Source of the DNA: a virus
Lineage: Duplodnaviria; Caudoviricetes
Direction: 5' to 3' (one strand)
Length of the DNA stretch: 28,465 nucleotides
Virus record (IMG/VR): IMGVR_UViG_3300044695_004146
Coordinates: 1 to 28,465 of that record
Made by a program: the position numbers and the translations under genes. Below are positions 1,230 to 26,085 of the stretch, in pieces (within the stretch, counting starts at the first letter, position 1; the number at the start of each line of letters is the position of its first letter). Under the pieces are notes generated by a model. That model was not told the DNA's origin. It was given only the letters and a program-made list of their open reading frames with translations, and searched no databases.

Positions 1230-2066
1230 ATGGAAGAAAACTTCGTTGATATATCTCGTGTTACTGTTCGTGAAATTAGTAAAGTAGTAGCACGAGATTT
1301 TATCGAAAAATATCATTATACAAAGAAATTTAGTTCTACACGATACGCACTCGGTATTTTCTACAAAGAAGATACCGAGCATGTGTTTTTCGCAGGTGAT
1401 AATGAACAATTGATAGGATGTATGACATACGGTCATCCTGTGAGCAATCGTACAGTAAATTCTATTGTAGATGATTTGGAACTTGACGAAGTATTGGAAT
1501 TAACTAGATTGGTATGTTTGGATGGGTATGGTAAGAATCTGGAAAGCTTTATAATAGCTCAATCATTTGATTGGTTAAAGAAAAATGATTCGCAAGTAAA
1601 AATACTAGTTAGCTACGCCGACCCAGAGCAAGCACATACGGGTGGTATCTATCGGGCAACCAATTGGATATATCAGGGATGTGGTGCATCAAAACTCATG
1701 CCTGATTATAGTTTGAAATTAGAAGAAGATAGTATGTGGATACATTCTCGTTCTGTGTCGGCTAGGTTTGGTAATAAGAATATCCATAATTTGGCAAAGA
1801 TTATTGGTCATACATTTTGGAGAAAAGAAGAAACTGCAAAGCATCGTTATATTTATTTTCTCTGCAATAAAAAAGAAAAGAAACGCATTTTAAATAATTT
1901 GAGAATGCCAATAATGTCTTATGGGGATATCAAAGAAACAATACAACTTATTCAAAAAATTCATGTACACGATGGACTTATTGAAAAGGTAGAAGTATTA
2001 CAAGGTGTAGATAATGGGTGGAAACCACAAAAAATAGAACTACAGGAAAAAATATATGAAAAATGA
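1230..2066 (+). CDS. Mom-like GNAT-fold DNA (adenine) modification protein
   Basis: FIEKYHY, LELTRL and LVSYADPEQAHTGGIYRATNWIYQG are characteristic of Mu Mom-family proteins. Confidence 0.8.
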   Translation: MEENFVDISRVTVREISKVVARDFIEKYHYTKKFSSTRYALGIFYKEDTEHVFFAGDNEQLIGCMTYGHPVSNRTVNSIVDDLELDEVLELTRLVCLDGYGKNLESFIIAQSFDWLKKNDSQVKILVSYADPEQAHTGGIYRATNWIYQGCGASKLMPDYSLKLEEDSMWIHSRSVSARFGNKNIHNLAKIIGHTFWRKEETAKHRYIYFLCNKKEKKRILNNLRMPIMSYGDIKETIQLIQKIHVHDGLIEKVEVLQGVDNGWKPQKIELQEKIYEK

Positions 2067-3702: not shown

Positions 3703-4607
3703 ATAAGATTAGCTATTCGCAGTATTCGTTGTGGGCAAATTGCCCAATGGCGTGGAAATTAAAGTATGTTGATGGTCATAGATTTGATGATTCGTCAATT
3801 AATACAGTATTCGGTACCGCTATGCACGAAGTCATCCAAGAGTGGCTTGAACAATACTATTACGCGGGAAAGGATACACAAGCAAAGAGTATTGACTTGG
3901 GTGAACCGTTGAAGCAGAAATTCATTACTTTGTTTCAAGAAAATACTACGGTCGATGCAAACGGGAATAAAGTATTCTTGTGTGACAAGAAAACCTTAAT
4001 GGAATTTTACAATCAAGGATGTGAGATTCTATCCTATGTTCAGCAACATCGTAATAAGATTTTTCCTTCCAAGGATACCGTACTTGCGGGTATTGAATAT
4101 CCGATTGAAACAGAAGTTCGTCCTGGTGTGACTTTTATTGGTTATGTCGATATTATCACCAAGAATGAAAAGACGGGTAAGGTTACGATCATCGACTTGA
4201 AAACTGCTCGGGCAGGATGGACACAGGCACAGAAGAGTGACCATATTAAACTAAATCAGATTTTGTTGTATAAGAAGTTTATCTCTGAAAAGTTTAACAC
4301 TCCGTTGGAAATGATTGGAACAGAGTTTATTATCTTGAAGCGAACAATTAGTGAGAATTCTCCGTATCTAATTCCTCGGGTAAGTACCTTCGAACCATCC
4401 AACGGAAAACCGTCAGTTAATCGAGCATGGGGACACATTGAAAAGTTCTTGGATGAATGTTTTGATGGGGAAGGAAATTATCGCACGGATTTGATTACCG
4501 CGACACCCAGCAAAGATAGTTGTAAGTATTGTGTGTATAAGGATAAGGAAGTATATTGTTCCGAATCATTTTACAAAATCAAAAAGGTGAAGGTTGTCAA
4601 TGGCTGA
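3699..4607 (+). CDS. PD-(D/E)XK nuclease, Cas4/RecB/AddB-like
   Basis: SYSQY...CP, FGTAMHEVI, E...GYVDII...IIDLKT, QxxxY and C-terminal CKYC...C (1+3 Cys, Fe-S-type arrangement). Confidence 0.85.
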   Translation: MNKISYSQYSLWANCPMAWKLKYVDGHRFDDSSINTVFGTAMHEVIQEWLEQYYYAGKDTQAKSIDLGEPLKQKFITLFQENTTVDANGNKVFLCDKKTLMEFYNQGCEILSYVQQHRNKIFPSKDTVLAGIEYPIETEVRPGVTFIGYVDIITKNEKTGKVTIIDLKTARAGWTQAQKSDHIKLNQILLYKKFISEKFNTPLEMIGTEFIILKRTISENSPYLIPRVSTFEPSNGKPSVNRAWGHIEKFLDECFDGEGNYRTDLITATPSKDSCKYCVYKDKEVYCSESFYKIKKVKVVNG

Positions 4608-5223
4608 AAATCCAATGGTGAATTATTCTAAAATCATCGCCGAAACAAATAGTAAAATGTTTAATGTTCGGGATGAATATAAGAATAATAGTGTTGAAGA
4701 AAACATTGCCATTTGCAATAAGGAGCACTTGAAGTTCTCCGTGGGATGTATTAATATTACAGGAGAACTCAACATTGGAATGATGTTGCGGTCGGCGTCT
4801 TTGTTGGGAGCAGAAAACTTTTATATCTTTGGACGCAAGAAATTTGACGCTCGTTCCACGGTTGGGGCTGAGAATTATATTAATATCAAGCAAATTGTAT
4901 TTGATGACCCGATTCACGCTGATGAAGAAATGCTACTGTATCTACAGAAATTATATGTTCATCATCACGAAATAGTTATTTGTGAACATGGTGGTGATCA
5001 ATTGGGAACATTTACTTGGAATGATATTGGTATCTATCCACACAAAAATCATACCCCATTGTTTTTGTTCGGGAGTGAAAGTCATGGAGTTCCAGAGATT
5101 ATTTCCAATGAACGTGCGTTTGCAAAAGTCAGTATCGGTCAACGTGGGGTGCTTCGGAGTTTCAATGTCAGTGCGGCAATGGCAATCGTGTGCTGGGATT
5201 ACATCAAGGAGATGGGACTGTGA
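4600..5223 (+). CDS. SpoU/TrmH-family RNA 2'-O-methyltransferase (SPOUT)
   Basis: NIGMMLRSASLLG, LFGSESHGV and SFNVSAAMAI are the three SpoU motifs. Confidence 0.88.
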   Translation: MAENPMVNYSKIIAETNSKMFNVRDEYKNNSVEENIAICNKEHLKFSVGCINITGELNIGMMLRSASLLGAENFYIFGRKKFDARSTVGAENYINIKQIVFDDPIHADEEMLLYLQKLYVHHHEIVICEHGGDQLGTFTWNDIGIYPHKNHTPLFLFGSESHGVPEIISNERAFAKVSIGQRGVLRSFNVSAAMAIVCWDYIKEMGL

Positions 5224-5659: not shown

Positions 5660-5716
5660 ATGAAAGTTAGAGAACTGATTACAAAACTCCAAGGGTTAGA
5701 CCAAAAAAATCTTTGA
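5660..5716 (+). pseudogene. 18-codon ORF, probably a truncated phage gene remnant
   Basis: Strong SD AAGGAG precedes MKVRELITKLQGLDQKNL*, a common N-terminus type of small phage proteins; stops just after an A7 run. Confidence 0.45.
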
Positions 5717-5768
5717 AATTATTAGGAAATACCGATAATATCTATTATATAGTATTTAAAAGACCCCC

Positions 5769-5798
5769 TTGACAAATCCCCTGTGATTGTATTATACA
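5769..5798 (+). promoter_or_regulatory. Sigma70-like promoter
   Basis: Perfect TTGACA (5769-5774) preceded by AT-rich DNA; -10-like TATTATAC at 5790-5797 (spacing not ideal); intergenic. Confidence 0.55.
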
Positions 5799-5851
5799 AC
5801 AACTGAAGATGTTGTATTTCTTCCCATCCTAAATGTAGTAACGGAGTAAAT

Positions 5852-6172
5852 ATGGAAAATCTTGATGATGATGGTTACCCGACTGATGCAGTATTAGATA
5901 AAATTACGAATTGGTCGCACACGGATAAGTTTGTTCATTTAATGGAATTTGTAAAGGATATTTGGTGGCAAGCGGATTGGGGATGGAGGGAGTATAATAC
6001 CAAAGATTATAACAACCGTGATGAAATTACATACGACATTTCTACAGGTGGGTGGTCTGGTAACGAAAGTATTATTAATGCCCTTCAAGATAACAGATTG
6101 TTTTGGATGTGTTGTTGGGAGCAAAGTAACCGGGGTGGGCATTATATTTTTAAAGTATTAACGGAGAATTAA
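5852..6172 (+). CDS. Phage hypothetical protein (Trp-rich, STGGWSGNE motif)
   Basis: SD GGAG upstream; first gene after the promoter. Confidence 0.75.
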   Translation: MENLDDDGYPTDAVLDKITNWSHTDKFVHLMEFVKDIWWQADWGWREYNTKDYNNRDEITYDISTGGWSGNESIINALQDNRLFWMCCWEQSNRGGHYIFKVLTEN

Positions 6173-6194
6173 ATGTTTCTTAAGGAGAACAAGT

Positions 6195-6428
6195 ATGCAG
6201 AAGCGTGATAGGTTTTTACTAGAACAGATGATGATGAAATGTTGGCATGTTACTGATGATATGGACACGATTTCTGAGTATGTGGCAAACCAGTATTCCG
6301 ACATTCCTACTAAACATGTGGATGCATTGTTGAACATGTTGGTTGGTATGCGAACATTATATGACCAGCGATTTAGTAATACAATGGATTTGTTTGCGGA
6401 ACTCATTAGAAAAGGAGATGTTAAATAA
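6195..6428 (+). CDS. Phage hypothetical protein (DRFxLEQxxxxCW type)
   Basis: SD AAGGAG at 6182-6187; motif resembles small proteins of T4-like phages. Confidence 0.72.
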   Translation: MQKRDRFLLEQMMMKCWHVTDDMDTISEYVANQYSDIPTKHVDALLNMLVGMRTLYDQRFSNTMDLFAELIRKGDVK

Positions 6429-6429
6429 T

Positions 6430-6654
6430 ATGTATGGAATTGACAAATATAAAGAATTGACCTTGACGGCAAGTGCATATAACAGAAAGGTGAATGTTGA
6501 ACTTCCCAAGGACAGTGATGCTAATACCGTGTTTGAGGCATTTAAAACCTTGATGGTTGGTCTGACCTTTAGTGAACACATGTTTAACGATGCGGTAGCA
6601 ACATATTTTTATGAACATGAATTAGACAGGGGTGTTGGGCGGGGTTGTATTTAA
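6430..6654 (+). CDS. Hypothetical protein
   Basis: ATG 1 nt after the previous stop; TAATG coupling to the next gene. Confidence 0.68.
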   Translation: MYGIDKYKELTLTASAYNRKVNVELPKDSDANTVFEAFKTLMVGLTFSEHMFNDAVATYFYEHELDRGVGRGCI

Positions 6655-8476: not shown

Positions 8477-8709
8477 AACACACAAAAAATTCATATACAA
8501 CAATACAAATAACAAAAGATTTCAACGAGCATATAAAAAAGTATTGTAAACAATATGAAATTAGCGCGTCAAAAATAACAGAACTTATGTGGAGTAATTA
8601 TATATCTTCCAGTAATTATTTACAAGAAATTATGGTAATGTCGGAAGACGCGAGAATGCATTTAATATCTTCTAGTATGTCTGGTAGTATATCTTTTATG
8701 GGTGTATAA
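8473..8709 (+). CDS. Small protein, possible ribbon-helix-helix DNA-binding
   Basis: ATGA overlap; TTIQI strand followed by two predicted helices (HIKKYCK, SASKITE). Confidence 0.55.
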   Translation: MKHTKNSYTTIQITKDFNEHIKKYCKQYEISASKITELMWSNYISSSNYLQEIMVMSEDARMHLISSSMSGSISFMGV

Positions 8710-8710
8710 T

Positions 8711-9427
8711 ATGGGAACCAGCATCATACCAACAAATTCAACCTATGCGCATTATTACCATAATGTAACGCCAAATCCACACACGCACGAAATTACACCA
8801 AATCCACATAGACATACTATGAAGTTTATAGAATCAGGATCTATTGATGGTCGTCCACGCGTGTTTAATGATGGATGTAAATTGGAGTGTAATATACTAA
8901 TTAAATTAATATACGATTCATTAAATACAGAATTAGCTGGTAGTAAGACTCGTGTCACAGCTGCAGCAAAAAAGGGTAATTGGATTACTGCAAATAAAAT
9001 AGGTAAACCAATTTGTGATTATCTGGAAAATTACTATATTTATCGAGTAATTTGTTATTTACGATCCAGAGTATGGTATACGGAATACGAAGCATTAGCA
9101 AACATACCAACGGTATTGGATATACAATCAACAGGTGCAATGTTAACTAATGCTGGTGGACTACAAGGAACAGAACAACAGGATACACCACCACAGCAAC
9201 CAATTTCACACGCGGATGTTCCTTTACAAATACAGCACTCAGATGTTCCAGTGCGTGTCGATACACCACACGCTGATGTACCACACAATGATACACCGCC
9301 ACCCCCACAAATAAGTTATATATATTGTAGACCACCTGGTGCTTCCTGTGGTTATTACCAAGTTACCGATACGGTAACAGATTGTAGTCAATTAGGCGCT
9401 ACACCAGGATCATTTGAACAATGTTAA
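8711..9427 (+). CDS. His/Pro-repeat protein with Cys-rich C-terminus, possibly virion-associated
   Basis: ATG 1 nt after the previous stop; TPNPHxH x2, HxD(V/T)P x4 and four C-terminal Cys. Confidence 0.7.
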   Translation: MGTSIIPTNSTYAHYYHNVTPNPHTHEITPNPHRHTMKFIESGSIDGRPRVFNDGCKLECNILIKLIYDSLNTELAGSKTRVTAAAKKGNWITANKIGKPICDYLENYYIYRVICYLRSRVWYTEYEALANIPTVLDIQSTGAMLTNAGGLQGTEQQDTPPQQPISHADVPLQIQHSDVPVRVDTPHADVPHNDTPPPPQISYIYCRPPGASCGYYQVTDTVTDCSQLGATPGSFEQC

Positions 9428-15136: not shown

Positions 15137-15907
15137 ATGAAAATAGCACTGTGTTTATCTGGCCAACCCCGAGGATTACCGTTATCACTTAAAATGTTAA
15201 AGGCAAATCTCATAGGCATTGAAAACATGGATGTGTTTCTCCATGCGTGGTTTGATCCCGATACTATCGGTCAGCCATATGATAGTGCTCAAGCGCATCA
15301 ACAAGGTCGTGTGGGATTAGTACATCCACAAACCGAAGAATTGTTGCTGAGTTTAAATCCCAAAGAACATTTGTTCGAACCGCAAAAAGATTTTCTATTT
15401 GCTAGACAATTTATATCGCCACCAGAAGCAAATCAAGAACGGATGGCTAGTATCTTCTATTCGATTTATACTGCAAATATGCTTAAAAAGAAATATGAAT
15501 TGGAGCATGGGTTTGAGTATGATTTAGTTATTCGGGCACGATATGATTTGTTGTTTGAGAGTCCAATCAATCCACTGGATTACTGGGAACAATCACGAAC
15601 GCATATAGTAACTGCGGAAAAGTTTCAAGGACTTCGAAACGATCCCAACTTTCATCAGGGTGGATACACCTTAACAGATATTTTCGCATTTTCTACATCA
15701 AAGAACATGGATGTATTTTGCGACACCTATCCACACATGTCATTTATCCATACGCAAATTAATCCTCCATACGGAGAAAATTATTTGGGATTCCGAGTTA
15801 GAGTTATGGGTGGTATCGACGCATATTGTGCTCCGTTTAATTATGAAATTATGCATCGGGTGGTAAATATTAACAATATAGATGAATTGGAAAAACTTTA
15901 CTCATGA
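15137..15907 (+). CDS. Putative glycosyltransferase-like protein (MKIAxCLSG family), paralog 1
   Basis: KIALCLSGQPR, DVFLHAW, YDLVIRARYDL and D.FA motifs; glycan-cluster context. Confidence 0.6.
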   Translation: MKIALCLSGQPRGLPLSLKMLKANLIGIENMDVFLHAWFDPDTIGQPYDSAQAHQQGRVGLVHPQTEELLLSLNPKEHLFEPQKDFLFARQFISPPEANQERMASIFYSIYTANMLKKKYELEHGFEYDLVIRARYDLLFESPINPLDYWEQSRTHIVTAEKFQGLRNDPNFHQGGYTLTDIFAFSTSKNMDVFCDTYPHMSFIHTQINPPYGENYLGFRVRVMGGIDAYCAPFNYEIMHRVVNINNIDELEKLYS

Positions 15908-16659
15908 AAATAGCTGTATGTTTGTCTGGTCATTATAGAACCCACGATACTACTTTTATCAACTGGTGTGAAAAATTATATTCCAAATATGATTGCGATG
16001 TATTTTTTCATACATGGGATGTTAATGGAACCAGAATAGGATTTCAAAATGATGAGGTGGCGGTAGAAGATTTAACTCCATTGGAATATACGGTTGATCA
16101 ATTAAAAGAGAAGTTTAAATTTACTGATGTAATTGTTGAAAATTATAAAGATTTACATGAAACATTTTTACATGTAAGTGCAGTCGCCAGAGAACGAAGA
16201 AAACATATACCAGAGTTGGAAAATAGACGAGCTGTTCATTTGTATTCCATGTGGTATAAAGCATTACAATGTTTTGAATTAATGGAAAATTACGCAAATC
16301 AAAATAATGTTAAGTATGATATAGTAATAAAATCACGACCCGATTTGATTGTTTTTGATCCGACTATTCAAACCACATATCAATTTGAGCATCTGCCTCC
16401 GATTACTTTAAATGAATTAGAACTCGACAAAGTAACAATTCCACTGTTTAACAAATCAGATGAACTACACGATTATTTTGCAGTGGGTACTGTAGACTTG
16501 ATGCGTAAATATCACCAGTTGTATAATCATATGTCATATTTGTTAGACAATATTAGTTTGGCAGATTTTTTAAATCCACATACATTATTGTACAACTACA
16601 CGGAATTATTTGATATACCCGTAAAACCAGTACGAAACTTTATAACTATACAACGATAA
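15904..16659 (+). CDS. Putative glycosyltransferase-like protein (MKIAxCLSG family), paralog 2
   Basis: KIAVCLSGHYR, DVFFHTW, YDIVIKSRPDL and DYFA motifs are shared with the upstream gene. Confidence 0.6.
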   Translation: MKIAVCLSGHYRTHDTTFINWCEKLYSKYDCDVFFHTWDVNGTRIGFQNDEVAVEDLTPLEYTVDQLKEKFKFTDVIVENYKDLHETFLHVSAVARERRKHIPELENRRAVHLYSMWYKALQCFELMENYANQNNVKYDIVIKSRPDLIVFDPTIQTTYQFEHLPPITLNELELDKVTIPLFNKSDELHDYFAVGTVDLMRKYHQLYNHMSYLLDNISLADFLNPHTLLYNYTELFDIPVKPVRNFITIQR

Positions 16660-16660
16660 T

Positions 16661-17530
16661 ATGAGAACAGATTTTACACCAGATAATGTTGAACTATGGA
16701 TATCTAATTGGAAACGAAAGGATTTGATGGATGGATTCGCACGGCAATGGTTAAATACTTTTGATTTTGAACGAGTCAATATCATTACCAATAATTCATC
16801 GGTGACCATAGAAGATTTTGCTGATGATATCAAACCTAGGATAAAGATTTGGAATAATGTAATGCGACACGATTATGCTATCGGCCCCATGGTCGAGAAT
16901 TATAATCAAGCATATGTTCACACCTTTCTCGCAGGTAAAAAATATTGTATTACGGCGCACGATAATATGAATATTCTTCCAGGATGGGTTGACATTATCA
17001 AGCAAACTGATTATGATTTATATATGGCACCGCAAGGTGATCAAGTTACATTAATAACCTTAGAAGGGTTGCGACGATTTGGTTGGTGGGACGAACGATA
17101 CGCAACCAACGGTAATCATGAACTAGATTATTCGTCACGAGCATTACGAAAGGACTTAGGACACAATAAAGCGTCTATTGTAGATTATCATGGGTGGCAT
17201 AATTGGCCTGAACAAGTTCAAGTAGAGGGACAGATTATTAGTCCAATTTGTAAAACGGGGCATCTTGAATATGGTGATGGGTTTCCATATCTCAGATGGA
17301 ATGATGTAGGATTGGACAAGTATTGGGTACGCGTATCGAAACATCAAGTACCACAGTGTGGACCAAAAACAGAAAAATTTGAGAAGTTAACGTGGAATGA
17401 CAGGAAGTGGAGAGGTCAAGCACCAAACATCTTTGAAAATTTCGCACAAGGGCCAGCAGAGGAAGAAATTGATTGGTACCCGTGGTTAGACATAAATTCT
17501 TTAAATTTCGACATTTGCAAAATTACATAG
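16661..17530 (+). CDS. Putative GT-A fold glycosyltransferase
   Basis: YNQA...ITAHDN (DxD position) and FGWWDERY...ELDY (GT2-like C-terminal motif). Confidence 0.55.
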   Translation: MRTDFTPDNVELWISNWKRKDLMDGFARQWLNTFDFERVNIITNNSSVTIEDFADDIKPRIKIWNNVMRHDYAIGPMVENYNQAYVHTFLAGKKYCITAHDNMNILPGWVDIIKQTDYDLYMAPQGDQVTLITLEGLRRFGWWDERYATNGNHELDYSSRALRKDLGHNKASIVDYHGWHNWPEQVQVEGQIISPICKTGHLEYGDGFPYLRWNDVGLDKYWVRVSKHQVPQCGPKTEKFEKLTWNDRKWRGQAPNIFENFAQGPAEEEIDWYPWLDINSLNFDICKIT

Positions 17531-17541
17531 GGGAAATATTA

Positions 17542-18177
17542 ATGTTAACAGAAAAGATACAAGCAGCACTTGAAGACATCCGTAATGGTAAACCAATCAT
17601 TGTCGTAGACAGTTATGATCGTGAAAACGAAGGTGACTTGATGATTGCTGCCGAAAAGGCAACACCTGAAACCTTGGCCTTCATTGCGAAAGAAGCACGG
17701 GGTATCATGTGCATTCCCACACCAAAGTTTATGTTGGATCGTTTGGGCATTCCCATGAGTCCGTCCAATAATAACGATAAGTTTTCTACACCATTCGCAG
17801 TAAGTATTGACGCTCGTGATGGTGTCACTACTGGCGTTAGTGTAGAAGATCGTATGGTTACAATTGGATTGGTATTGGACGAAAATACCAAGCCAGAGCA
17901 GTTAGCTTACCCAGGACATTTATTCCCACTTCGTCCACGATCAGGTCTCCTAAAAGATCGTCAAGGTCATACCGAAGCATCAGTACAGTTAGCAATGATG
18001 GCGGGTACGAAACCAGTGGCTATTATTTGTGAAATCATGAATGATGATGGTAGTATGTCCCGCATTCCAGATTTGGATCCATATGCAAAGAAATGGAATT
18101 TAAATATGATTTCTATCGATGAAGTTATTGAATATTGTAATGAAATTGGATGGGAACCTTCAATTCAAGTTGGGTAA
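17542..18177 (+). CDS. ribB: 3,4-dihydroxy-2-butanone-4-phosphate synthase
   Basis: DRENEGDL, GIMC, FAVSID, TTGVS..DR, PGHLFPL, RQGHTEAS and ICEIMNDDGSM all intact. Confidence 0.93.
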   Translation: MLTEKIQAALEDIRNGKPIIVVDSYDRENEGDLMIAAEKATPETLAFIAKEARGIMCIPTPKFMLDRLGIPMSPSNNNDKFSTPFAVSIDARDGVTTGVSVEDRMVTIGLVLDENTKPEQLAYPGHLFPLRPRSGLLKDRQGHTEASVQLAMMAGTKPVAIICEIMNDDGSMSRIPDLDPYAKKWNLNMISIDEVIEYCNEIGWEPSIQVG

Positions 18178-18180
18178 TAT

Positions 18181-18522
18181 ATGGCACACAGAGTATACAA
18201 GGGTACATCAATCGGTGGTAGTCCGATTGTAACAATGGTAGACAATCATGTATATAAAGGAATGGCTATCGAAGGAGCTCCGTTATACACGGTGAATGAT
18301 AATCGTTTGTTTAGAGGGAGATCTTATTCAGGTTCTCCATTAGCTACATTACACGAGAATCGTATATTTTTGGGAATGTCCAAGCAAGGTGATCCATTAG
18401 CAACTATTGTGGATAATAAAAGTTATAAAGGAATGGCAGTATTTGGGTCGCCAATAGCAACATCACCTGATAACAATAAGTTGGCGGTCTTTGCAGCAAC
18501 ATATCATATACTGAAAGGATAA
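18181..18522 (+). CDS. Five-fold 19-aa repeat protein, beta-flower-like
   Basis: Five repeats of ~(N)RVYKGxxxxGxPLxT followed by a hydrophobic C-terminal helix. Confidence 0.65.
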   Translation: MAHRVYKGTSIGGSPIVTMVDNHVYKGMAIEGAPLYTVNDNRLFRGRSYSGSPLATLHENRIFLGMSKQGDPLATIVDNKSYKGMAVFGSPIATSPDNNKLAVFAATYHILKG

Positions 18523-18523
18523 T

Positions 18524-19522
18524 ATGTCCGAATTAGTTACACGGGCCTACAATCGATTTGATGTGGATGCGACACGGGGGATACTTAGAAAGATAAGTTC
18601 TACCGAACGACTGCGTGATGAAATTTTGTATTATAAAACCCTGCAGACAACCTTCCCCGACAAATCAATTTATTTTCCACGACTACTCGACAGCATTCAT
18701 CATGTGAAAGATGATTACTGGATGGATCTGGAACTGTATGATTATCCCAATCTGGGTAGTTACTTACTGGCGGACAATATTATGCCGTCGTGGGATGATT
18801 TATTTTCTAAATTGTCGAACATATTAACGGAATGGTCAGAAGCACATCCGTATACAAAATGGACAGAGGATGAAATTCGTTCGGCTGCATATGACATGTA
18901 TATAACAAAGACCGAACGAGAATACACTAATTTTTATAATGGTTGGCGAGATAAGTTTGAATCTTTATTTATTGATCAAATAAGAAATCATATATTATAC
19001 ATCAATAACAAAGAATACAAACCATTTGAAATGATATGGCCGCAGATAAAATCATATATCGAAAAAAATATGTTACAATTTACACCATCAATGATTCATG
19101 GTGATTGTTGTTTCAGTAATATTTTATATGGACAAGAGAAAAACATTATTCGATTCATTGATCCTCGTGGATCGTTTGGTAAAGTAGGAATATTTGGTGA
19201 CATTAGATATGATGTTGCAAAATTACAACACTCGGTTGATGGATTATACGAAGCGTTTATAACTGATAAATTTACTGTCGATGCTCGTGGAAATGCATAT
19301 GAACTGAATATTCGTACCGGATCTATTGCACATACAGAAATCAATATTGCGTATGAAAAATTTCATAAAACATTTTTCCCACAATTTAAACTGAAAGATA
19401 TCAAGATTATTCAGGGATGTATCTTTATTGGTATGTGTGCACGACACTATGATAGTATGGAAAGACAACGAGCAATGTACTTGACTGGCATTCGTTTATT
19501 GAATGAGGCATCACAATTATGA
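18524..19522 (+). CDS. APH/choline kinase-fold sugar kinase (capsule-biosynthesis type)
   Basis: RAYN, EILYY, HGDCCFSNIL, FIDPRGSFG and GDIRYDVAKL motifs. Confidence 0.82.
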   Translation: MSELVTRAYNRFDVDATRGILRKISSTERLRDEILYYKTLQTTFPDKSIYFPRLLDSIHHVKDDYWMDLELYDYPNLGSYLLADNIMPSWDDLFSKLSNILTEWSEAHPYTKWTEDEIRSAAYDMYITKTEREYTNFYNGWRDKFESLFIDQIRNHILYINNKEYKPFEMIWPQIKSYIEKNMLQFTPSMIHGDCCFSNILYGQEKNIIRFIDPRGSFGKVGIFGDIRYDVAKLQHSVDGLYEAFITDKFTVDARGNAYELNIRTGSIAHTEINIAYEKFHKTFFPQFKLKDIKIIQGCIFIGMCARHYDSMERQRAMYLTGIRLLNEASQL

Positions 19523-20298
19523 ATGTACTTGTTTTGATGGCCGGTAAAGGTCAACGATTTGTAAAGGAAGGGTACGCAACTCCCAAACCACTCATAGAAG
19601 TAAATGGAAAAACTATACTACAATGGACTACCGAGTCCTGTCCATATATTAAACATGATGGCCGGAGTCAATATAATGATGTAAAATTACATTTCGCTGT
19701 GTTACAAGAACATTTAGAAACTGGATTGGATAGATTTTTATATTCCATATACGGTCGCAATATTGAAATTATTCCGTTTAGAAAAATTACTCGTGGTAAT
19801 TTAGAAACTGCTCACATCGCATGTAAACGAATGTTAAACACCGGGGATGATTTGTTGGTGTTGGATTCTGACAATAAATACAATGATAATAATATGTCAC
19901 AGTTTATTGATCGTTTACCAAAACAAACACATACAATGGCAGTAATGTGTTTTGACAACCTTGACAAATCATTACCGAACAAATGGTCGAATGTAAGTAT
20001 TGAAAAAGGAGTTGCAACGGGTATACGAGAAAAAGATGATGCGTGGATAGAACATCCATCACTCATAGGTACTTTCTATTTTGCGAATACAGATTTCTTT
20101 ATCAATTATTCATCGTATATTATTAATCACGAAAAACCTGTGATCTTCGGTGGTAACCGAGAATATTATATGAGTATGGTTCCTTCACACTTATTAAAAG
20201 TGCAACGGGTATATTCACATAAAATAACAGATGTAATACCGTTAGGTACACCGGAAGATGTCAAACAATTTGAGGGAATATATGATTATAGCGTTTGA
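19519..20298 (+). CDS. Sugar nucleotidyltransferase-fold protein (BcbE-like GT-A)
   Basis: LMAGKGQRF...PKPLIEV, TRG..ETA, LDSD, REK, EYY and LGTPED motifs. Confidence 0.82.
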   Translation: MNVLVLMAGKGQRFVKEGYATPKPLIEVNGKTILQWTTESCPYIKHDGRSQYNDVKLHFAVLQEHLETGLDRFLYSIYGRNIEIIPFRKITRGNLETAHIACKRMLNTGDDLLVLDSDNKYNDNNMSQFIDRLPKQTHTMAVMCFDNLDKSLPNKWSNVSIEKGVATGIREKDDAWIEHPSLIGTFYFANTDFFINYSSYIINHEKPVIFGGNREYYMSMVPSHLLKVQRVYSHKITDVIPLGTPEDVKQFEGIYDYSV

Positions 20299-20662
20299 CC
20301 TGGACAACACTATCTGCGAAAATAAACTTGGTGATATGACGTACGCCGATGTGAAACCGTTTCCAGAAGCATTAGACACATTAAAATGGTTAAAGGCAGA
20401 AGGACATACTATTATTTTACACACCGCACGACACATGAAAACTTGTGGTGGGAATCAAGGAAAGGTATTGGCAAAACAAGGAAAAGTTTTATTCGATTGG
20501 TTAGATACATGGGAGATACCATACGATGAAATTTGGTGGAGCAAGCCACACGCCGATCTAATAGTAGATGATGCAGTACATAGACACACAGAGTGGTCTT
20601 CCACAGTGGAAGCCATTAAGAACCGAATACAAAAAGGTCCGCGGGGACCGGAGAATCCATAA
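20282..20662 (+). CDS. HAD phosphatase, capsule-biosynthesis (EcbF/BcbF-like)
   Basis: SD GAGGG; FDLDNT, HTAR, WL....IPYDEI...KP and VDD motifs. Confidence 0.82.
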   Translation: MIIAFDLDNTICENKLGDMTYADVKPFPEALDTLKWLKAEGHTIILHTARHMKTCGGNQGKVLAKQGKVLFDWLDTWEIPYDEIWWSKPHADLIVDDAVHRHTEWSSTVEAIKNRIQKGPRGPENP

Positions 20663-20664
20663 TT

Positions 20665-21498
20665 ATGTCAGAACCTACTTTCTTTTTCGACACAGCAGAC
20701 ACAAACTATATTCGTAAGACATGGGATAAACTTGGTAAACACATCGACGGTGAATCGGTAATTGGTATTACGACAAATCCAAGTGCGTTGGCAAAAGTAA
20801 ACTGTGATACTTTAAATAAGTTTGAAAAACTTGTTACTGAACTCTGTGAACTTGTTCACGACATTCGTGGACAAAGTGCATTTGGGTTGGTATATGTGCA
20901 AGTTCCTAATTCATTGATGGACCCCGATGAAATTATTGAATGGGCCAAGTACATTAAACAATTCAATGGTAATGGAGCAGCAATCGCATTAAAAATTCCA
21001 CATTTTAATTACGCGGTACAACTAACAGAAGACCCAGAATTCCATGAGTTATATGTGAATGTCACTGGTGTTGCTGATGCTGGAACGATTGTGAAATCTA
21101 TGAGTTTTAATAATATATTTTTTGGTAGTATTATTCCAGGTCGTATGGAAGAAGTGGGTATCGATGCTAACTCTCATTTAGAATTTTTAGCAAACACACA
21201 ATTCCACAAACATCAAAATATTATTGCGGGAAGTATGCGTACGATTGAAGGACTTCGCAATTCCATTTATTATCACACCGTTCCTACGATTGGTAGTCGT
21301 GTGTGGGATATCATTGACACTGAAAATGGATGGGAACAGTTTGCTTCATACTGGGAATATACATATTCTGCACCTGAGTATCCTGTTGCGACCTATCCAC
21401 CATTCACGACCGGAACAAATATTGACTTAAGTAAACAGTTCTTTGATCAAATGGATATATTAGGTGAAAGTATATACAAAGAGTTTATTGGTAAATGA
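20665..21498 (+). CDS. Transaldolase / fructose-6-phosphate aldolase family protein, divergent
   Basis: FFDTAD, GITTNPS, LKIP (Schiff-base Lys), VNVT, PGR and AGSMR motifs. Confidence 0.8.
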   Translation: MSEPTFFFDTADTNYIRKTWDKLGKHIDGESVIGITTNPSALAKVNCDTLNKFEKLVTELCELVHDIRGQSAFGLVYVQVPNSLMDPDEIIEWAKYIKQFNGNGAAIALKIPHFNYAVQLTEDPEFHELYVNVTGVADAGTIVKSMSFNNIFFGSIIPGRMEEVGIDANSHLEFLANTQFHKHQNIIAGSMRTIEGLRNSIYYHTVPTIGSRVWDIIDTENGWEQFASYWEYTYSAPEYPVATYPPFTTGTNIDLSKQFFDQMDILGESIYKEFIGK

Positions 21499-22226
21499 AT
21501 ATAATTATTCCTATGGCTGGTGAAGGAACTCGTGTAAAAAGCACGGTTCCCAAACCACTGGTAGAAGTATTACCAGGTAAAACCATGATTGAAATGGCAT
21601 TGGAATCGTTAAATATTGATGGACATTATTGTTTTATTGTAAGACGATATCAAAATAATGATTGGAATGTGGCTCTTCGTGATTCGATTCGTAAAACCGT
21701 AGGGCAAGCAGTTGTTGTAGAAATTGATTATCTTACCGATGGTCCTGCTATATCCGCGTTACATGCACCTGAATTATTTTTTGGCAATACAGATTTGTTA
21801 GTTACAAATTGTGACCAAATTATGCATTGGGATGCTGATAAATTTATAGAATTTACCAAAACAACAGACGCAGTTGGTGCTGTGGTGACTTATAATACCA
21901 ACACACCAAAGAACAGTTACGCATTGGTTACCAATACAGAACACACATATCCGATATTTACCCAAGTAAGAGAAAAGGAAGTGATTAGTAACTATTCCTT
22001 AAACGGTATTCACTGGTGGAAGTATGGTAACGATTTCGCATCTTCTGTGCATACGATGATGGAAAAGAAAAATACTGTTAATGGTGAATATTATGTAGGT
22101 CCGACATATAACTACTTGGAAGGCATTAAACGAGTATATGATATACCTCCGTCAGAACACTATGCCGTAGGAACCTTGGAAGATATTGAACAATATAGAG
22201 TATTGTATGGAAATAAAACGAATTGA
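21495..22226 (+). CDS. Sugar nucleotidyltransferase-fold protein (BcbE-like GT-A), second copy
   Basis: IPMAGEGTR...PKPLVEV, TDGPA, NCDQ, REKEVIS, NGEYYVGP and GTLED motifs. Confidence 0.85.
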   Translation: MNIIIPMAGEGTRVKSTVPKPLVEVLPGKTMIEMALESLNIDGHYCFIVRRYQNNDWNVALRDSIRKTVGQAVVVEIDYLTDGPAISALHAPELFFGNTDLLVTNCDQIMHWDADKFIEFTKTTDAVGAVVTYNTNTPKNSYALVTNTEHTYPIFTQVREKEVISNYSLNGIHWWKYGNDFASSVHTMMEKKNTVNGEYYVGPTYNYLEGIKRVYDIPPSEHYAVGTLEDIEQYRVLYGNKTN

Positions 22227-22545
22227 GGATATGACCCGTGGATGGTTTATTGGAAACTTTAATCCATCCGTGTTAATGACCAGTGACTTTGAAGTAGGAT
22301 ATCTTTGTCACAAAAAAGGGGAAACTTGGGGTACGCATTATCACAAGAGAGCTGTAGAAATTAATTATTTAATTCGTGGAAAGATGCGAATTCACGGACA
22401 ACTATTGACAACAGGAGATATATTCACTATATTTCCGTATGAGATAGCAGATCCAGAATTCTTAGAAGATTGTGAATTAATTGTTGTTAAATTACCGTCT
22501 GTCATAGGCGACAAATATAATTTAGTAGAAGAGGTAAAAAAATAA
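22207..22545 (+). CDS. Cupin (RmlC-like sugar epimerase/isomerase)
   Basis: GWFIGNF and HYHKRAVEINY metal-binding cupin motif. Confidence 0.75.
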   Translation: MEIKRIEDMTRGWFIGNFNPSVLMTSDFEVGYLCHKKGETWGTHYHKRAVEINYLIRGKMRIHGQLLTTGDIFTIFPYEIADPEFLEDCELIVVKLPSVIGDKYNLVEEVKK

Positions 22546-22546
22546 A

Positions 22547-23776
22547 ATGAGTGTGAATATTTTTACAAGAGATATTGATTTATCTAAATATTTTGTAGTT
22601 AAGTATTTTCTTTCGGGGAAAACTTCACTACGAGATGCCGCGTGGAATTTGGCAATTGGGCAAAGCATCGGCAATCCGAACAATCGTAGTGTGTGGGAAA
22701 CGGACCAGATGTTTCGTGATCACAGTTGTTTTGTTCTCGCTGATGAAAATGAATTGAAGTCAAAGTTTTCCGGTGAAGTTGATATCGCATTTCCCTTAGA
22801 AAATCTCAACTTAGAAGAAGATGGTATCTCTCAAATTCTCTGTCATATCGCTGGTGGTCAGGTTGATATTCTGGAAATTGAACAATGCCATGTGTTAGAT
22901 GTAACACTACCAGAACATATTGAACAACAGTTTACATTGAAACCAGCATATGGTATTGATGGATTCCGTAAATTTAATGGTGTCGAAGGTAAACCATTCT
23001 TCGGTGGTATTATCAAACCCAAGGTTGGAATGAGTCCCGAGGTATTGTTAGAAGCCGTGAAGGAAATGGTGTATGGCGGTGTAAACTTTATTAAAGAAGA
23101 TGAACTCCTTGGTGACCCCGCACATTGTCCATTATCCAAACGAGTTCCACTAATTTCAAATTGGTTGGCACAAAATGCCCCGAATGTAATGTACACATTC
23201 TGTATTAATGGTGACAGTCCGTACGCATTACAACGAGCACAGTTCGTTTCAGATGAAGGTGGATTGGGCGTCCATATTAATGTGTGGAGTGGATTGGGTA
23301 TATATCGTGCAATCCGTAAACAGAATCCCAATCTGTGGATTCACTTCCAGAAGTCTGGGGACAAATTCTTTACTGACCGGCGTGCACCAAATCATATTTA
23401 TTGGCCTGTCATCTGTAAGATTGCTGGTTGGTCTGGTGCAGATTCTATCCACGCAGGTATGATTGGTGGATACATGAATCAAGACGATACCGAACTTCAA
23501 GATGCATTGAAAGTGTTGTGGAATTATAATGTCATCCCTGCACTTAGTTGTGGAATGCATCCTGGATTGGTTCAACATATTAATGGACTACTTGATAGTC
23601 ATGATTGGATGGCAAATGTTGGTGGTGCAATGCATGGGCATCCCATGGGTACTCTCGCCGGTGGGTTGGCGATGCGTCAAGCAATCGATGGTACTCATGG
23701 AATGGAATACGAAACAGCCATTACGAAATGGGGACATGCAGAAGTTAATTCCGATTTACAATACAGAATTTTTTAA
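22547..23776 (+). CDS. RuBisCO-like protein (form IV RLP)
   Basis: GGIIKPKVG, GVNFIKEDE, DSIHAG, LSCGMHPG and VGGAMHGHP align to RbcL; Glu60, His294 and Lys334 equivalents are replaced. Confidence 0.9.
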   Translation: MSVNIFTRDIDLSKYFVVKYFLSGKTSLRDAAWNLAIGQSIGNPNNRSVWETDQMFRDHSCFVLADENELKSKFSGEVDIAFPLENLNLEEDGISQILCHIAGGQVDILEIEQCHVLDVTLPEHIEQQFTLKPAYGIDGFRKFNGVEGKPFFGGIIKPKVGMSPEVLLEAVKEMVYGGVNFIKEDELLGDPAHCPLSKRVPLISNWLAQNAPNVMYTFCINGDSPYALQRAQFVSDEGGLGVHINVWSGLGIYRAIRKQNPNLWIHFQKSGDKFFTDRRAPNHIYWPVICKIAGWSGADSIHAGMIGGYMNQDDTELQDALKVLWNYNVIPALSCGMHPGLVQHINGLLDSHDWMANVGGAMHGHPMGTLAGGLAMRQAIDGTHGMEYETAITKWGHAEVNSDLQYRIF

Positions 23777-23785
23777 GAGAATTAT

Positions 23786-24451
23786 ATGACATTAATTAAT
23801 AGAACCACCGATATCATTTCGAAGATTACTAAGTTACCTACCGACATATATGGACTAACGCATCGTCCATCGCTGGAGCCACATATTTCCGATGATACGG
23901 ATTGGCTCGGTACTCCTGATCCAGAACCACCATTACATTTTACACCGTTGGATCATGATGCATTGACATATGCGTATAATAAACTTACCTCACCACCAAA
24001 GTTAATTGTGGAAATTGGAGTCAATCGTTCTGAGAGTTATGAAGTATCATCTACTTCTACACTCTTGAAATTAAAACCACAAGAGTGTATGTATATTGGT
24101 ATTGATTTGGATGACAAGTCGGCAATCAATAGTATTGAACACAACATATTTACAATTCAAGATGATTCTGCTAATTATGAAAAATTGTATCAATTGATGG
24201 AATGGTACGGACACGAACAAATTGATTTCATGTTTGTGGATGGGTGGCATTCCGTTAATCAAGTATTAAAGGAGTGGAAGTATTGGGAAAAGATGATTAC
24301 CAATGGGGTCATGGCATTCCACGATACCAATTATCATCCAGGTCCGGTGGCGTTACTTGACGCCATTGACACGAGTATATTTTCCGTTGAATATTTTGGG
24401 CTCGGAGAAGCTGATTGGGGAGTAGGTGTGGTGCAACGATTCGAGGTGTGA
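23786..24451 (+). CDS. Class I SAM-dependent methyltransferase (Methyltransf_24-like)
   Basis: VEIGV, GID, DS, FVDGWHS and GVMAFHDT motifs. Confidence 0.78.
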   Translation: MTLINRTTDIISKITKLPTDIYGLTHRPSLEPHISDDTDWLGTPDPEPPLHFTPLDHDALTYAYNKLTSPPKLIVEIGVNRSESYEVSSTSTLLKLKPQECMYIGIDLDDKSAINSIEHNIFTIQDDSANYEKLYQLMEWYGHEQIDFMFVDGWHSVNQVLKEWKYWEKMITNGVMAFHDTNYHPGPVALLDAIDTSIFSVEYFGLGEADWGVGVVQRFEV

Positions 24452-24452
24452 T

Positions 24453-25364
24453 ATGATTAAAGGTTTAATTTCTATCTTTGTATTACCCCACGAGATTGAT
24501 AATTTACATTTAACATTATATAATCTCCGTCGTAATGCAGAATTTAATCAAGATGTGCAATATAAATTTGACATCACACTGTGTTTAAGTGATGAGATGA
24601 TTGATTGGGCACAATCAAAACTTCCTCGTGAATATTTTGCTGACAAGTTTCATGCTACCGTCACAACATTATGTAAGTGGGCAGACGCAAATAGCACATT
24701 TAGAATAGAATACGAAGATAAAATATTGGGGTGTGTGTCGCAACGCCGACATACATTACAATATGTTGATGAATGTGATTTTACTTTGTGGTTGGATAAT
24801 GACTTATTCTTCGGTGATAAGTTTCTTGGATATTTGGGAAGTGCAATCAACGCTATTCAAAAAAATGGAATTGAATATTATGTAGTAACCCCACAAATTA
24901 CCAGACAATGGGATTCTACATGGGATGTACTCGTTAATGAAGATTTATTGAATAAACCATTTAATGATAATTTGGTGGCAAATGTATTTGATTTGGGGTT
25001 ACGAGACAATGGTGTTGGTGTTGTTCCCATCCCCAACTTTAAGGCAGCCGGTGGATGGGGTACGGTACTTAGTAGTAAGTTATTAAAGATGGTTGGCATA
25101 CCCGACTCGTTTGGACATTACGGTTTAGAAGATACATATGTATTAACATGTGCGCAAATGCTTCGTGAACACGGAGTACCGATACAACAATATGTACTCA
25201 ACGGATTACTGGCATGCGAAAATCACAGTGGGCAAACTAATGAATATTTACGAAAGAATATTTATTTAAAAGATAGAAAAGATGAGTTTAGACAAATAGC
25301 AACACAGAATTACGGACAAGAACTTCAACGGTTTTATAATGAAAATATTCTACAGAATAAGTGA
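24453..25364 (+). CDS. Putative GT-A fold glycosyltransferase
   Basis: SD GAGGTG; WLDNDL (DxD) and GHYGLEDT motifs. Confidence 0.68.
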   Translation: MIKGLISIFVLPHEIDNLHLTLYNLRRNAEFNQDVQYKFDITLCLSDEMIDWAQSKLPREYFADKFHATVTTLCKWADANSTFRIEYEDKILGCVSQRRHTLQYVDECDFTLWLDNDLFFGDKFLGYLGSAINAIQKNGIEYYVVTPQITRQWDSTWDVLVNEDLLNKPFNDNLVANVFDLGLRDNGVGVVPIPNFKAAGGWGTVLSSKLLKMVGIPDSFGHYGLEDTYVLTCAQMLREHGVPIQQYVLNGLLACENHSGQTNEYLRKNIYLKDRKDEFRQIATQNYGQELQRFYNENILQNK

Positions 25365-26085
25365 ATCCAGTAATTCACAACATGCACAACAACGAACATG
25401 GCAAGTTAAGTTATCTAACGCCACGAAACAACGGTGTTTGTTAAATGTACTGAATTGTTTCCCCACGGCAGAAATTACCATATTTGTGGATTCGATTAGC
25501 GATGAAACATGGAAGTGGTTAAATGAATTATCGGATGCAACAGAACGAGTTAATCTCGTCAAGATACAAGCAGGGTCCGATGCTAAGTCAATGCGAGTAT
25601 TATTAGACGAAGTGCAAAAGATTACAAATGATAAAGAAATTGTTTTGTTTCAAGAAGACGATTACCTATATCTTCCTGGTTCTGAACACAAAATTATCGA
25701 GGCATTAAATTATGCGCACTATGCAACTGGGTACTTACACCCTGATAAGTTCTGGGATCCTTCTCACGGTGGCAATCCGTATACTCCTATGGACAATGTA
25801 TCGGAACCTACGCAAGTTATTAAAACGACTGACCATTTTTGGATGATGACCAACTCCACTACCAATACCTTTGCAACAACTGTAGGTACTATCAAAGAAG
25901 ATATGGATGTGTGGATGTGGGGAACCGACGATGGTATTAATACAAAAGATTTTGCAATCTTTCTTAAACTTCGTGAAAAGAATAGGGCATTAGTGCAACC
26001 ATTACCGTCCTTAGCTACACACTGTTTAAAGGGATTTGAAGCACCTCTAGTTGGATTGAATGTCGAGTCATGGGAAGATATCTAA
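25339..26085 (+). CDS. Putative GT-A fold glycosyltransferase
   Basis: LFQEDDYLY, HPDK, STTNTFA and PSLATH motifs; cluster context. Confidence 0.65.
   Translation: MKIFYRISESSNSQHAQQRTWQVKLSNATKQRCLLNVLNCFPTAEITIFVDSISDETWKWLNELSDATERVNLVKIQAGSDAKSMRVLLDEVQKITNDKEIVLFQEDDYLYLPGSEHKIIEALNYAHYATGYLHPDKFWDPSHGGNPYTPMDNVSEPTQVIKTTDHFWMMTNSTTNTFATTVGTIKEDMDVWMWGTDDGINTKDFAIFLKLREKNRALVQPLPSLATHCLKGFEAPLVGLNVESWEDI

Follow-up and report, generated by a model that had tools for sequence, protein, structure and literature searches.

Two adjacent cassettes for probable nucleotide-sugar synthesis, one carrying a RuBisCO-like protein, in the glycosylation island of a T4-like phage

Introduction

What is a RuBisCO-like protein (RLP) doing in a phage, in a tight block with RibB, a kinase, nucleotidyltransferases and an aldolase, and do all nine genes of that block serve the same sugar? 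Characterised RLPs are salvage or catabolic enzymes, and the present one is instead linked to activation. The known examples, namely the MtnW enolase, the R. rubrum isomerase, the apiose decarboxylase OiaX and a hamamelose oxygenase (PMC10176493), share with it the RuBisCO fold and a metal site at which enediolates form. The initial annotation of the window, by which is meant the whole 28,465-nt stretch analysed (viral record IMGVR_UViG_3300044695_004146), read the nine genes as one pathway making and activating an unusual ketose or branched sugar. The source phage is uncultured and comes from a lake. The analysis described here favours another arrangement: the block is probably two separately inherited cassettes lying side by side in the glycosylation island of a T4-like phage, each likely making its own nucleotide-activated furanose for a surface glycan.

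Organisation of the locus

The nine open reading frames between 17542 and 23776 are all intact and co-oriented (Table 1), and abut or overlap as first described, with successive gaps of +3, +1, -4, -17, +2, -4, -20 and +1 nt. Their flanks carry glycosyltransferase genes (two GT4, one GT11 and one GT2) together with pairs of genes for NDP-sugar epimerases, methyltransferases and DUF7796 proteins, and T4-like clamp-loader genes lie further to the left of the sugar-gene island. The proposal of nucleotide-sugar biosynthesis within a glycosylation island holds up.

Table 1. Features of the nine-gene block and its immediate surroundings
Feature	Position	Strand	Basis of assignment
Two DUF7796-type genes, outside nine-gene block	15137..16659	+	DUF7796-like domain
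RibB (DHBP synthase), cassette A	17542..18177	+	TIGR00506
6-fold beta-flower repeat protein	18181..18522	+	PF21786
APH/choline-kinase-fold sugar-phosphate kinase (AfhE kinase-domain type), cassette A	18524..19522	+	RB69 gp52 match
Nucleotidyltransferase NT1, cassette A	19519..20298	+	PHROG 3980
Small HAD phosphatase (AfhF/BcbF type), cassette A	20282..20662	+	RB69 gp51 match
Transaldolase-fold class I aldolase, cassette A	20665..21498	+	Fold and active-site residues
Nucleotidyltransferase NT2, cassette B	21495..22226	+	RLP linkage, tree group
Small cupin, cassette B	22207..22545	+	PHROG 24762
Phage 'form IV-like' RLP, cassette B	22547..23776	+	RuBisCO fold, motifs
SAM methyltransferase	23786..24451	+	PF13578

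Linkage was surveyed around the RLP (the best 80 of 120 viral relatives, 75 of the 80 being non-siblings of the window) and around the aldolase (39 viral loci, 33 of them non-siblings), with flanks of up to 10 kb and counts taken over loci without dereplication. Among the best 80 of 120 RLP relatives, a nucleotidyltransferase was present at 77 loci, a cupin at 76 and a phosphodiesterase at 64; RibB and the kinase were present at all 39 aldolase loci, a nucleotidyltransferase and the HAD at 38 each, and an RLP at 7. The beta-flower gene is a passenger insertion, occurring at 1 of the same 80 RLP loci and 2 of the 39 aldolase loci in copies identical to that of the window, and being absent from siblings L002-L004. 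The SAM methyltransferase, with homologues at 26 of the best 80 of 120 RLP loci, is missing together with cassette B at the same site in L145 and L150; it travels with cassette B in the window's lineage and is a candidate for O-methylation.

Cassette A

RibB scores 220 bits against TIGR00506 (cut-off 177), and 14 E. coli RibB positions, which we take to be catalytic, show no variation across the 41 distinct copies, as in a canonical RibB. It accompanies the aldolase at every one of the 39 aldolase-anchored loci, and in several contigs, as well as in Synechococcus phage S-SKS1, it forms a fusion with a nucleotidyltransferase; lumazine synthase and GTP cyclohydrolase II were not found in five records, one of them complete. 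Both the fusions and the missing riboflavin genes count for use of DHBP by cassette A. The kinase carries HGDxxxxN and DP motifs, matches RB69 gp52 by BLAST (33% over 155 aa, E 1e-12) and is likely an anomeric kinase, and the HAD matches RB69 gp51 (32% over 109 aa, E 7e-12). The two NTP-transferase folds have weak Pfam and NCBIfam matches and hit PHROG 3980 at E 6e-32 and 2e-39. In a quick tree they fall into different groups, NT1 with other cassette-A enzymes (18 rows, SH-aLRT 98) and NT2 with RLP-linked nucleotidyltransferases, and BLAST gave no significant match of either to RB69 gp53.

Homologous kinase and HAD genes beside a nucleotidyltransferase correspond to activation of the AfhE/AfhF type, the UDP-arabinofuranose route of HY126, RB69 and DLP3 (PMC13326640), in which an anomeric kinase, a HAD phosphatase and a nucleotidyltransferase act on a furanose omega-phosphate. 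This logic is already characterised and so is not new. Cassette A differs from it in keeping kinase and nucleotidyltransferase as separate genes, the latter with no detectable BLAST similarity, in occurring in phages (G555 and S-SKS1) without hydroxycytosine synthase, and in having RibB and the aldolase where the AfhE/AfhF feeder is arabinose-5-phosphate isomerase. The initial annotation's lead to the E. coli K4 kfo homologues proved right in kind as to locus make-up: the fructofuranose loci K4 kfo, O92 and Pasteurella bcb/ecb (PMC8858990 and PMC7685785) are surface-glycan loci that combine HAD, kinase and nucleotidyltransferase with a gene of DUF7796-like or WavE type. Unlike cassette A, those loci have no feeder enzymes, and the window HAD, although EcbF/BcbF-like, scores 68.7 bits against TIGR01689, below the cut-off of 162. 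In bacterial loci for surface polysaccharides, E. coli O92 among them, the trio likewise accompanies WavE or DUF7796-like genes; the O92 antigen is a fructan, judging from a cited paper's title. Given the homology of kinase and HAD with the RB69 equivalents of AfhE/AfhF, and the recurrence of the trio in the O92 cluster, RibB and the aldolase are, by analogy, likely a new feeder.

The aldolase model (pLDDT 94.8) has transaldolases as its top Foldseek matches, and its fold, Schiff-base lysine (K110), transaldolase-type N/T/S donor pocket with N132 and S155, and phosphate arginines are those of a TalC-type transaldolase. The transaldolase acid/base Glu (E60) with Phe132 is not matched, the positions being Q79 in 97 of 98 rows and I/L157 in 98 of 98. 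Of the FSA water triad Q59-T109-Y131 (PMC13259622), Q79 and T134 are present and the Tyr is replaced by I157. S155 sits at the position of FSA A129S, a change favouring DHA, and R192 at that of FSA K168R.

In the mechanism proposed for cassette A, RibB would convert ribulose 5-phosphate to DHBP, a methyl-ketone analogue of glyceraldehyde 3-phosphate, and the aldolase, with F6P or S7P as donor, would attach a dihydroxyacetone unit to DHBP, yielding 4-C-methyl-hexulose 6-phosphate. The kinase would then place a phosphate on the anomeric OH, the 6-phosphate would be taken off by the HAD, and NT1 would form the NDP-sugar, as AfhE/AfhF do with arabinose 5-phosphate. A C-methyl-branched ketose phosphate is our best guess for the feeder product; two points count against the ketone addition, in that the enzyme has neither of the known acid/base residues (transaldolase Glu, FSA Tyr) and that we know of no natural transaldolase with a ketone acceptor.

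Cassette A might alternatively make ordinary NDP-activated fructose or sedoheptulose, or a simple, CDP-alditol-like NDP-DHBP donor; the aldolase would then supply nothing beyond a common precursor, and the sugar would be unbranched. That reading draws on the trio's occurrence without a feeder in bacteria, in the O92 fructan cluster among other loci, and on the NT-RibB fusion, which could pass DHBP directly to nucleotidylation. It is nevertheless unlikely: the constant pairing of RibB with the aldolase is unneeded for a common precursor, the aldolase active site is fixed, non-canonical and different from that of cyanophage TalC, and an anomeric kinase plus phosphatase would imply a ring sugar, which DHBP presumably cannot form.

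Cassette B

The RLP model has a RuBisCO fold (pLDDT 92, Foldseek TM about 0.8). It keeps KPK, KEDE, H302, S334 and GG, an active-site set invariant in 72 sequences, and the carbamylated-lysine/Mg motif KxDE reads K183-E-D-E in 72 of 72. The residues that we take to serve carboxylation, E60, N123, H294 and loop-6 K334 in spinach numbering, correspond to G38, G104, Q268 and Y309 in the alignment with P. horikoshii RuBisCO, each in 72 of 72. Three identities were rejected: carboxylating RuBisCO of forms I-III (carboxylation residues replaced; TIGR03326, 151 against 497 bits), MtnW/DK-MTP-1P enolase (TIGR03332, 77 against 514 bits, in a window without methionine-salvage genes) and the apiose-pathway enzyme OiaX (NF042437, 116 against 700 bits). 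It stands apart from the RLPs of PMC10176493, scoring under the cut-off of each family for which there is a model and having a different active-site set. Because the Mg/carbamate and phosphate sites are kept and the carboxylation residues are missing, the RLP is likely, on sequence grounds, an enediolate isomerase feeding an NDP-sugar.

Phage 'IV-like' RLPs with Beckwithbacteria relatives were described earlier (Jaffe et al., bioRxiv 10.1101/386292), and, judged by its divergence, its large-phage contigs and its Beckwithbacteria relatives (one MAG homologue is 49% identical), features which the two sets have in common, the window RLP belongs to that clade. Function is left unclear there, and the main text makes no mention of sugar, nucleotidyl, glycosyl, cupin or polysaccharide, whereas the present family is tied and fused to nucleotidyltransferase and cupin. 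Two proteins, P0241 and P0242, are RLP-NT-cupin triple fusions, and these, with the nucleotidyltransferase linkage surveyed above, support the biosynthetic RLP role first suggested; cellular RLP copies sit among glycosyltransferases. Phage 'IV-like' RLPs and the kinase/HAD/NT logic are already in print; no characterisation of a biosynthetic role for an RLP was found in the literature.

The cupin has an H-x-H-x4-E motif, invariant over 79 rows, and is a candidate isomerase or epimerase. In the proposed route, the RLP would take a ketose 1,omega-bisphosphate, either FBP or RuBP, to its Mg-bound 2,3-enediolate. Having no carboxylation ability, it would then re-protonate or rearrange this intermediate; further isomerisation or epimerisation would fall to the cupin, and activation of the product to NT2. 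A GDPD-like phosphodiesterase may reposition the phosphate in other phages, and the window's lineage, with none nearby, may borrow the kinase and phosphatase of cassette A. The chemistries proposed for both cassettes rest on residue patterns. Loci of the order phosphodiesterase-HAD-NT-cupin-NT-WavE in Ruegeria, Roseinatronobacter, Pseudomonas and Scandinavium plasmids carry the same nucleotidyltransferase families and cupins of 41-45% identity, and adjoin polysaccharide export genes; an RLP was not found in the stretches examined.

Destination of the sugars

A DUF7796-like domain occurs in the neighbourhood of cassette A at 36 of 39 loci and of cassette B at 44 of the best 80 of 120, and a gene of this kind is also found inside the E. 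coli O92 cluster. The DUF7796 proteins are candidate transferases that would transfer both activated sugars, a proposal against which the weak profile match to WavE counts (probability 5.8, E 0.007).

Placement on phage DNA, like the arabinose of RB69, DLP3 and HY126, rather than on virion or cell-surface glycans, is a poor prospect, even though the T4-like genome context is compatible with it and DNA arabinosylation is what the kinase/HAD/NT trio has been characterised to serve in phages (PMC13326640). A ThyA-family gene (PF00303) was not found in complete G555 or in S-SKS1, in a search that recovered both td and the hydroxylase from the control, RB69; bacterial homologues adjoin O-antigen ABC exporters, flippases and WavE, and the island itself holds GT11, GT2 and GT4 families.

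One pathway or two

That RibB, aldolase, RLP and cupin act serially on a single sugar, as originally claimed, is very improbable. The nine genes are contiguous on one strand, the cassettes are adjacent in the window's lineage, and L125 and L129 also carry both, arranged differently and with a single nucleotidyltransferase in the sequence examined; RibB-fused nucleotidyltransferases nest among RLP-linked ones in the quick tree; and the usual phosphodiesterase is missing from the window and from a 67%-complete sibling. These points count against full independence. Complete genomes nonetheless hold each cassette alone: G555 (218 kb, with terminal repeats and gp23) and S-SKS1 have cassette A and no RLP was found in them, and in G557-G560 (91-100% complete) the RLP is present and aldolase and RibB were not found. 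In sibling contigs L145 and L150 the aldolase is directly followed by hyp289, cassette B being cleanly absent, and the block itself contains two distinct nucleotidyltransferases. The expected recurrence of RLP neighbours holds for nucleotidyltransferase and cupin but fails for RibB, kinase and aldolase, each found at five of the best 80 of 120 RLP loci, exclusively in siblings, and therefore at 0 of 75 non-sibling ones; reciprocally, an RLP lies near 2 of 33 non-sibling aldolase loci.

A reading of RibB, transaldolase and RLP as unconnected auxiliary metabolic genes, variously boosting riboflavin, shunting pentose phosphates, salvaging methionine or fixing CO2, can be set aside almost entirely, for although RibB is canonical and cyanophages carry a true TalC, the other riboflavin genes were not found in the five records, the aldolase is without the transaldolase Glu, the RLP lies far below the form III, MtnW and OiaX cut-offs without carboxylation residues, and RibB and RLP are both nucleotidyltransferase-fused elsewhere.

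Implications

More speculatively, and with low probability, the two cassettes may both build branched sugars by chemistry new to their folds, cassette A giving NDP-4-C-methyl-hexulose by aldolase addition of dihydroxyacetone to the ketone DHBP and cassette B a hamamelose-type 2-C-branched sugar from FBP through a skeleton rearrangement by the RLP. These sugars would be displayed on the virions of giant viruses and of large phages from fresh and sea water, and on the surfaces of Patescibacteria; the RLP step would be the first sugar-building role in the RuBisCO superfamily. The RLP link to nucleotide-sugar synthesis, if true, adds a biosynthetic role to that superfamily and gives a direct assay, and cassette A, if correctly read, employs RibB beyond riboflavin synthesis. 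The same activation genes could account for activation of bacterial fructofuranose and xylulofuranose, xylulose activation in bacteria being a stated gap in PMC7685785. Cassette A is present in a cultured phage, S-SKS1, and its glycan is therefore analysable. The phage IV-like RLP family is large, with 2,629 or more protein clusters matching at E <= 1e-20, a figure that may include some other RuBisCO-fold proteins; its members are usually annotated 'RuBisCO large chain' and may therefore be miscounted as viral carbon fixation.

Organization of the nine-gene block

The nine open reading frames of the block are intact, lie in one orientation and are separated by intergenic gaps of -20 to +3 nt. 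The gene labels of the initial annotation were borne out by family searches, which assigned the products to RibB (scoring above the curated cut-off), a beta-flower repeat protein, an APH-type kinase, two nucleotidyltransferase (NT) folds of the NTP-transferase type, a BcbF-like HAD protein, a transaldolase fold, a cupin, and a RuBisCO fold, the last being a RuBisCO-like protein (RLP). The 6-fold repeat beta-flower gene, situated between RibB and the kinase, was found only in near-identical copies and in one other locus, L144. In the window, GT4, GT11, and GT2 genes flank the block, as do epimerases, methyltransferases, and a pair of DUF7796 genes; T4-like clamp-loader genes lie still further to the left. 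An equation of DUF7796 with WavE was rejected, the match being only weak.

Sequence words of the window are present at a level of at least 0.85 in 14 lake-water DNA runs, six of which are possibly source runs. In three lake metatranscriptome runs, contigs reach 30, 24, and 25 of the 30 window bins, although strand is not readable from these contigs and they may be of DNA origin. One complete relative whose island genes are similar, G555, is a phage of 218 kb that carries a gp23 capsid gene.

Coordinates of the block and of further genes in the window and in surveyed loci
Record	Position	Feature
Window	17542-23776	Nine-gene block
Window	16661-17530	No confident family; kept with the island in siblings; candidate glycosyltransferase
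Window	24453-25364	No confident family; kept with the island in siblings; candidate glycosyltransferase
Window	25339-26085	No confident family; kept with the island in siblings; candidate glycosyltransferase
Window	1230-2066	Mom-like DNA modification protein (PHROG 1384, E 2e-49), with a ClpP-like protease on one side and a clamp-loader subunit on the other
Window	4594-5223	Phage-borne SpoU-family RNA methyltransferase
Window	8702-9427	ORF of 241 aa; short repeats rich in Pro and His; C-terminal part contains Cys; no Pfam family
L174 (also L175)	5685-6617	310-aa form IV-like RLP homolog, KPK lost and KEDE altered; within a glycosylation cluster, adjoining gmd and methyltransferases; possible pseudo-enzyme
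L082	9995-11185	Cellular RLP copy; NT and cupin not in view; followed by glycosyltransferase-like genes

Two cassettes in one block

The block consists of two cassettes, one (A) comprising RibB, the kinase, nucleotidyltransferase NT1, the HAD phosphatase, and the transaldolase-fold aldolase, and the other (B) comprising nucleotidyltransferase NT2, the cupin, and the RLP. The initial annotation had read the nine genes as a single pathway, a reading rejected on the evidence of reciprocal surveys and complete genomes in which the cassettes occur apart. Loci in both surveys were counted without dereplication and some are partial. Among the best 80 of 120 viral relatives of the RLP, with neighbors counted within 10 kb, linkage to NT (77/80) and cupin (76/80) recurred, together with a short GDPD-like phosphodiesterase (64/80) and DUF7796-like genes (44/80), whereas the linkage to RibB, kinase, and aldolase (5/80 each) was confined to close siblings of the window and was seen in none of the other 75. 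Around the aldolase, the 39 loci contained RibB (39), kinase (39), NT (38), HAD (38), and DUF7796-like genes (36), with the RLP in seven, or in 2/33 once six siblings were removed. At the level of whole genomes, cassette A occurs without an RLP in G555 and in S-SKS1, a cultured phage of Synechococcus, and genomes G557-G560 (91-100% complete) have an RLP but lack both aldolase and RibB. In the window siblings L145 and L150, the aldolase is followed directly by hyp289. In a quick tree built from 121 of the 149 NT domains (85% dereplication), NT1 falls among cassette-A enzymes and NT2 among those linked to the RLP.

The two cassettes may nevertheless share activation enzymes, because loci L125 and L129 hold both in another order with one NT in view, RibB-fused NTs nest among RLP-linked NTs in the quick tree, and the window lineage appears to lack the phosphodiesterase, which was found neither in the window nor in 5 incomplete sibling records (the positive control was found in 3 other RLP records). 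In L145, RibB and the cassette-A kinase are separated by a second set consisting of an NT-kinase fusion and HAD, which constitutes a third activation cassette.

Neither the RibB/aldolase feeder nor the RLP-NT-cupin cassette was found described or characterized in the literature available to the searches. The activation logic of kinase, HAD, and NT is already known, and the predicted chemistry of both cassettes is possibly new.

Cassette A: proposed activation and supply

The cassette-A kinase and HAD match RB69 gp52 (E 1e-12) and gp51 (E 7e-12), respectively; the NTs gave no significant match to RB69 gp53. The RB69 analogues AfhE/AfhF of HY126 are described as acting by C1 phosphorylation of arabinose 5-phosphate and removal of the 5-phosphate, with UDP-arabinofuranose being made (PMC13326640). 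In bacterial loci the kinase/HAD/NT trio has export genes as neighbors, together with WavE or genes of the DUF7796-like type, and one such locus is an E. coli O92 O-antigen cluster, the polymer of which, going by a paper title that PMC7685785 cites, is a fructan; the insertion of fructose into the K4 capsule is credited to KfoE in a review (PMC8858990). From the RB69/HY126 likeness and these bacterial loci, we infer that the trio would serve generally to convert a furanose omega-phosphate into an NDP-furanose, with its neighbors acting as feeders. The cultured cyanophages Bellamy (L086) and S-SM2 (L089) encode a double-NT protein together with a class II aldolase, HAD, and phosphodiesterase, which makes a further feeder variant of this system. 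In Campylobacter jejuni IA3902, CJSA_1353-1362 resemble the kinase/HAD/NT and cupin/NT/HAD/phosphodiesterase sets in gene size and label (PMC7901785 Table 4); the same study did not find a second capsule (PMC7901785).

All 14 E. coli positions considered in RibB are kept in 41/41 copies. Since RibB is thus conserved and in S-SKS1 is fused to an NT, and since the riboflavin genes for lumazine synthase and GTP cyclohydrolase II were not found in 5 records (one complete; controls positive), its product from ribulose 5-phosphate, DHBP, is likely used on the spot. DHBP corresponds to glyceraldehyde 3-phosphate with a methyl group replacing the aldehyde hydrogen. The aldolase, mapped by TalC alignment, MAFFT alignment, and fold search (a sequence search against the PDB returned nothing significant), keeps D9, T36, N38, K110, N132, T134, S155, R160, and R192, with Gln at the transaldolase Glu position (97/98) and Ile/Leu at the Phe/Tyr position (98/98). 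In FSA, dihydroxyacetone is favored by a Ser at the position of S155, and phosphate binding by an Arg at that of R192 (PMC13259622). On the simplest reading, which has somewhat less than even odds, the aldolase would transfer dihydroxyacetone to DHBP to give 4-C-methyl-hexulose 6-phosphate, which would suit the downstream trio.

Cassette B: the RLP and its partners

In the RLP, K157, K159, K183-E-D-E, H302, S334, G336, G359, and G360 are retained throughout 72 distinct sequences, and the positions equivalent to RuBisCO E60, N123, H294, R295, and K334 (spinach numbering) are always G, G, Q, K, and Y, respectively. Y309 is a candidate proton donor. The protein falls below the family cut-offs for form III, MtnW, and OiaX. 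Because enediolate formation is a step common to RLPs (PMC10176493), the RLP is likely an isomerase or rearranging enzyme acting on a ketose bisphosphate. Cassette B probably serves NDP-sugar synthesis; within it, the chances are about even that the RLP step is an epimerization or isomerization, and skeletal branching is unlikely. The phage IV-like RLP clade has already been published, with its function left open, and sugar-related terms are absent from the preprint's main text (Jaffe et al., bioRxiv 10.1101/386292).

RLP, NT, and cupin are fused in two proteins, and RLP copies of Patescibacteria lie in NT / phosphodiesterase-cupin-RLP blocks amid glycosyltransferases. Bacterial plasmids carry phosphodiesterase-HAD-NT-cupin-NT-WavE sets, with the RLP absent from the stretches examined; Scandinavium cupin/NT DNA had no match in E. 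coli genomes. The phosphodiesterase keeps GDPD-like motifs and, speculatively, might shift a phosphate from C1 to the anomeric carbon via a cyclic phosphate, thereby standing in for a kinase.

The RLP had no match in 50,697 INPHARED records of cultured phages, and a single-protein scan of GTDB gave 4 loci. Among 401 genomes of the phylum of one genome, G003, a high RLP score was confined to G003, two 207-208-bit matches resembling other RuBisCO-fold proteins; among 151 genomes of the order of another, G004, only G004 matched. GVMAG-named contigs from giant-virus bins (L069, L072-L074, L078-L080) also bear RLP cassettes, in several of which a single ORF encodes both NT and cupin.

Likely destination of the predicted sugars

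No ThyA-family gene was found in the complete cassette-A genomes by a search that recovers the RB69 hydroxylase, and the bacterial homologs serve surface polysaccharides. A virion or host-surface glycan is the more likely destination, rather than DNA.
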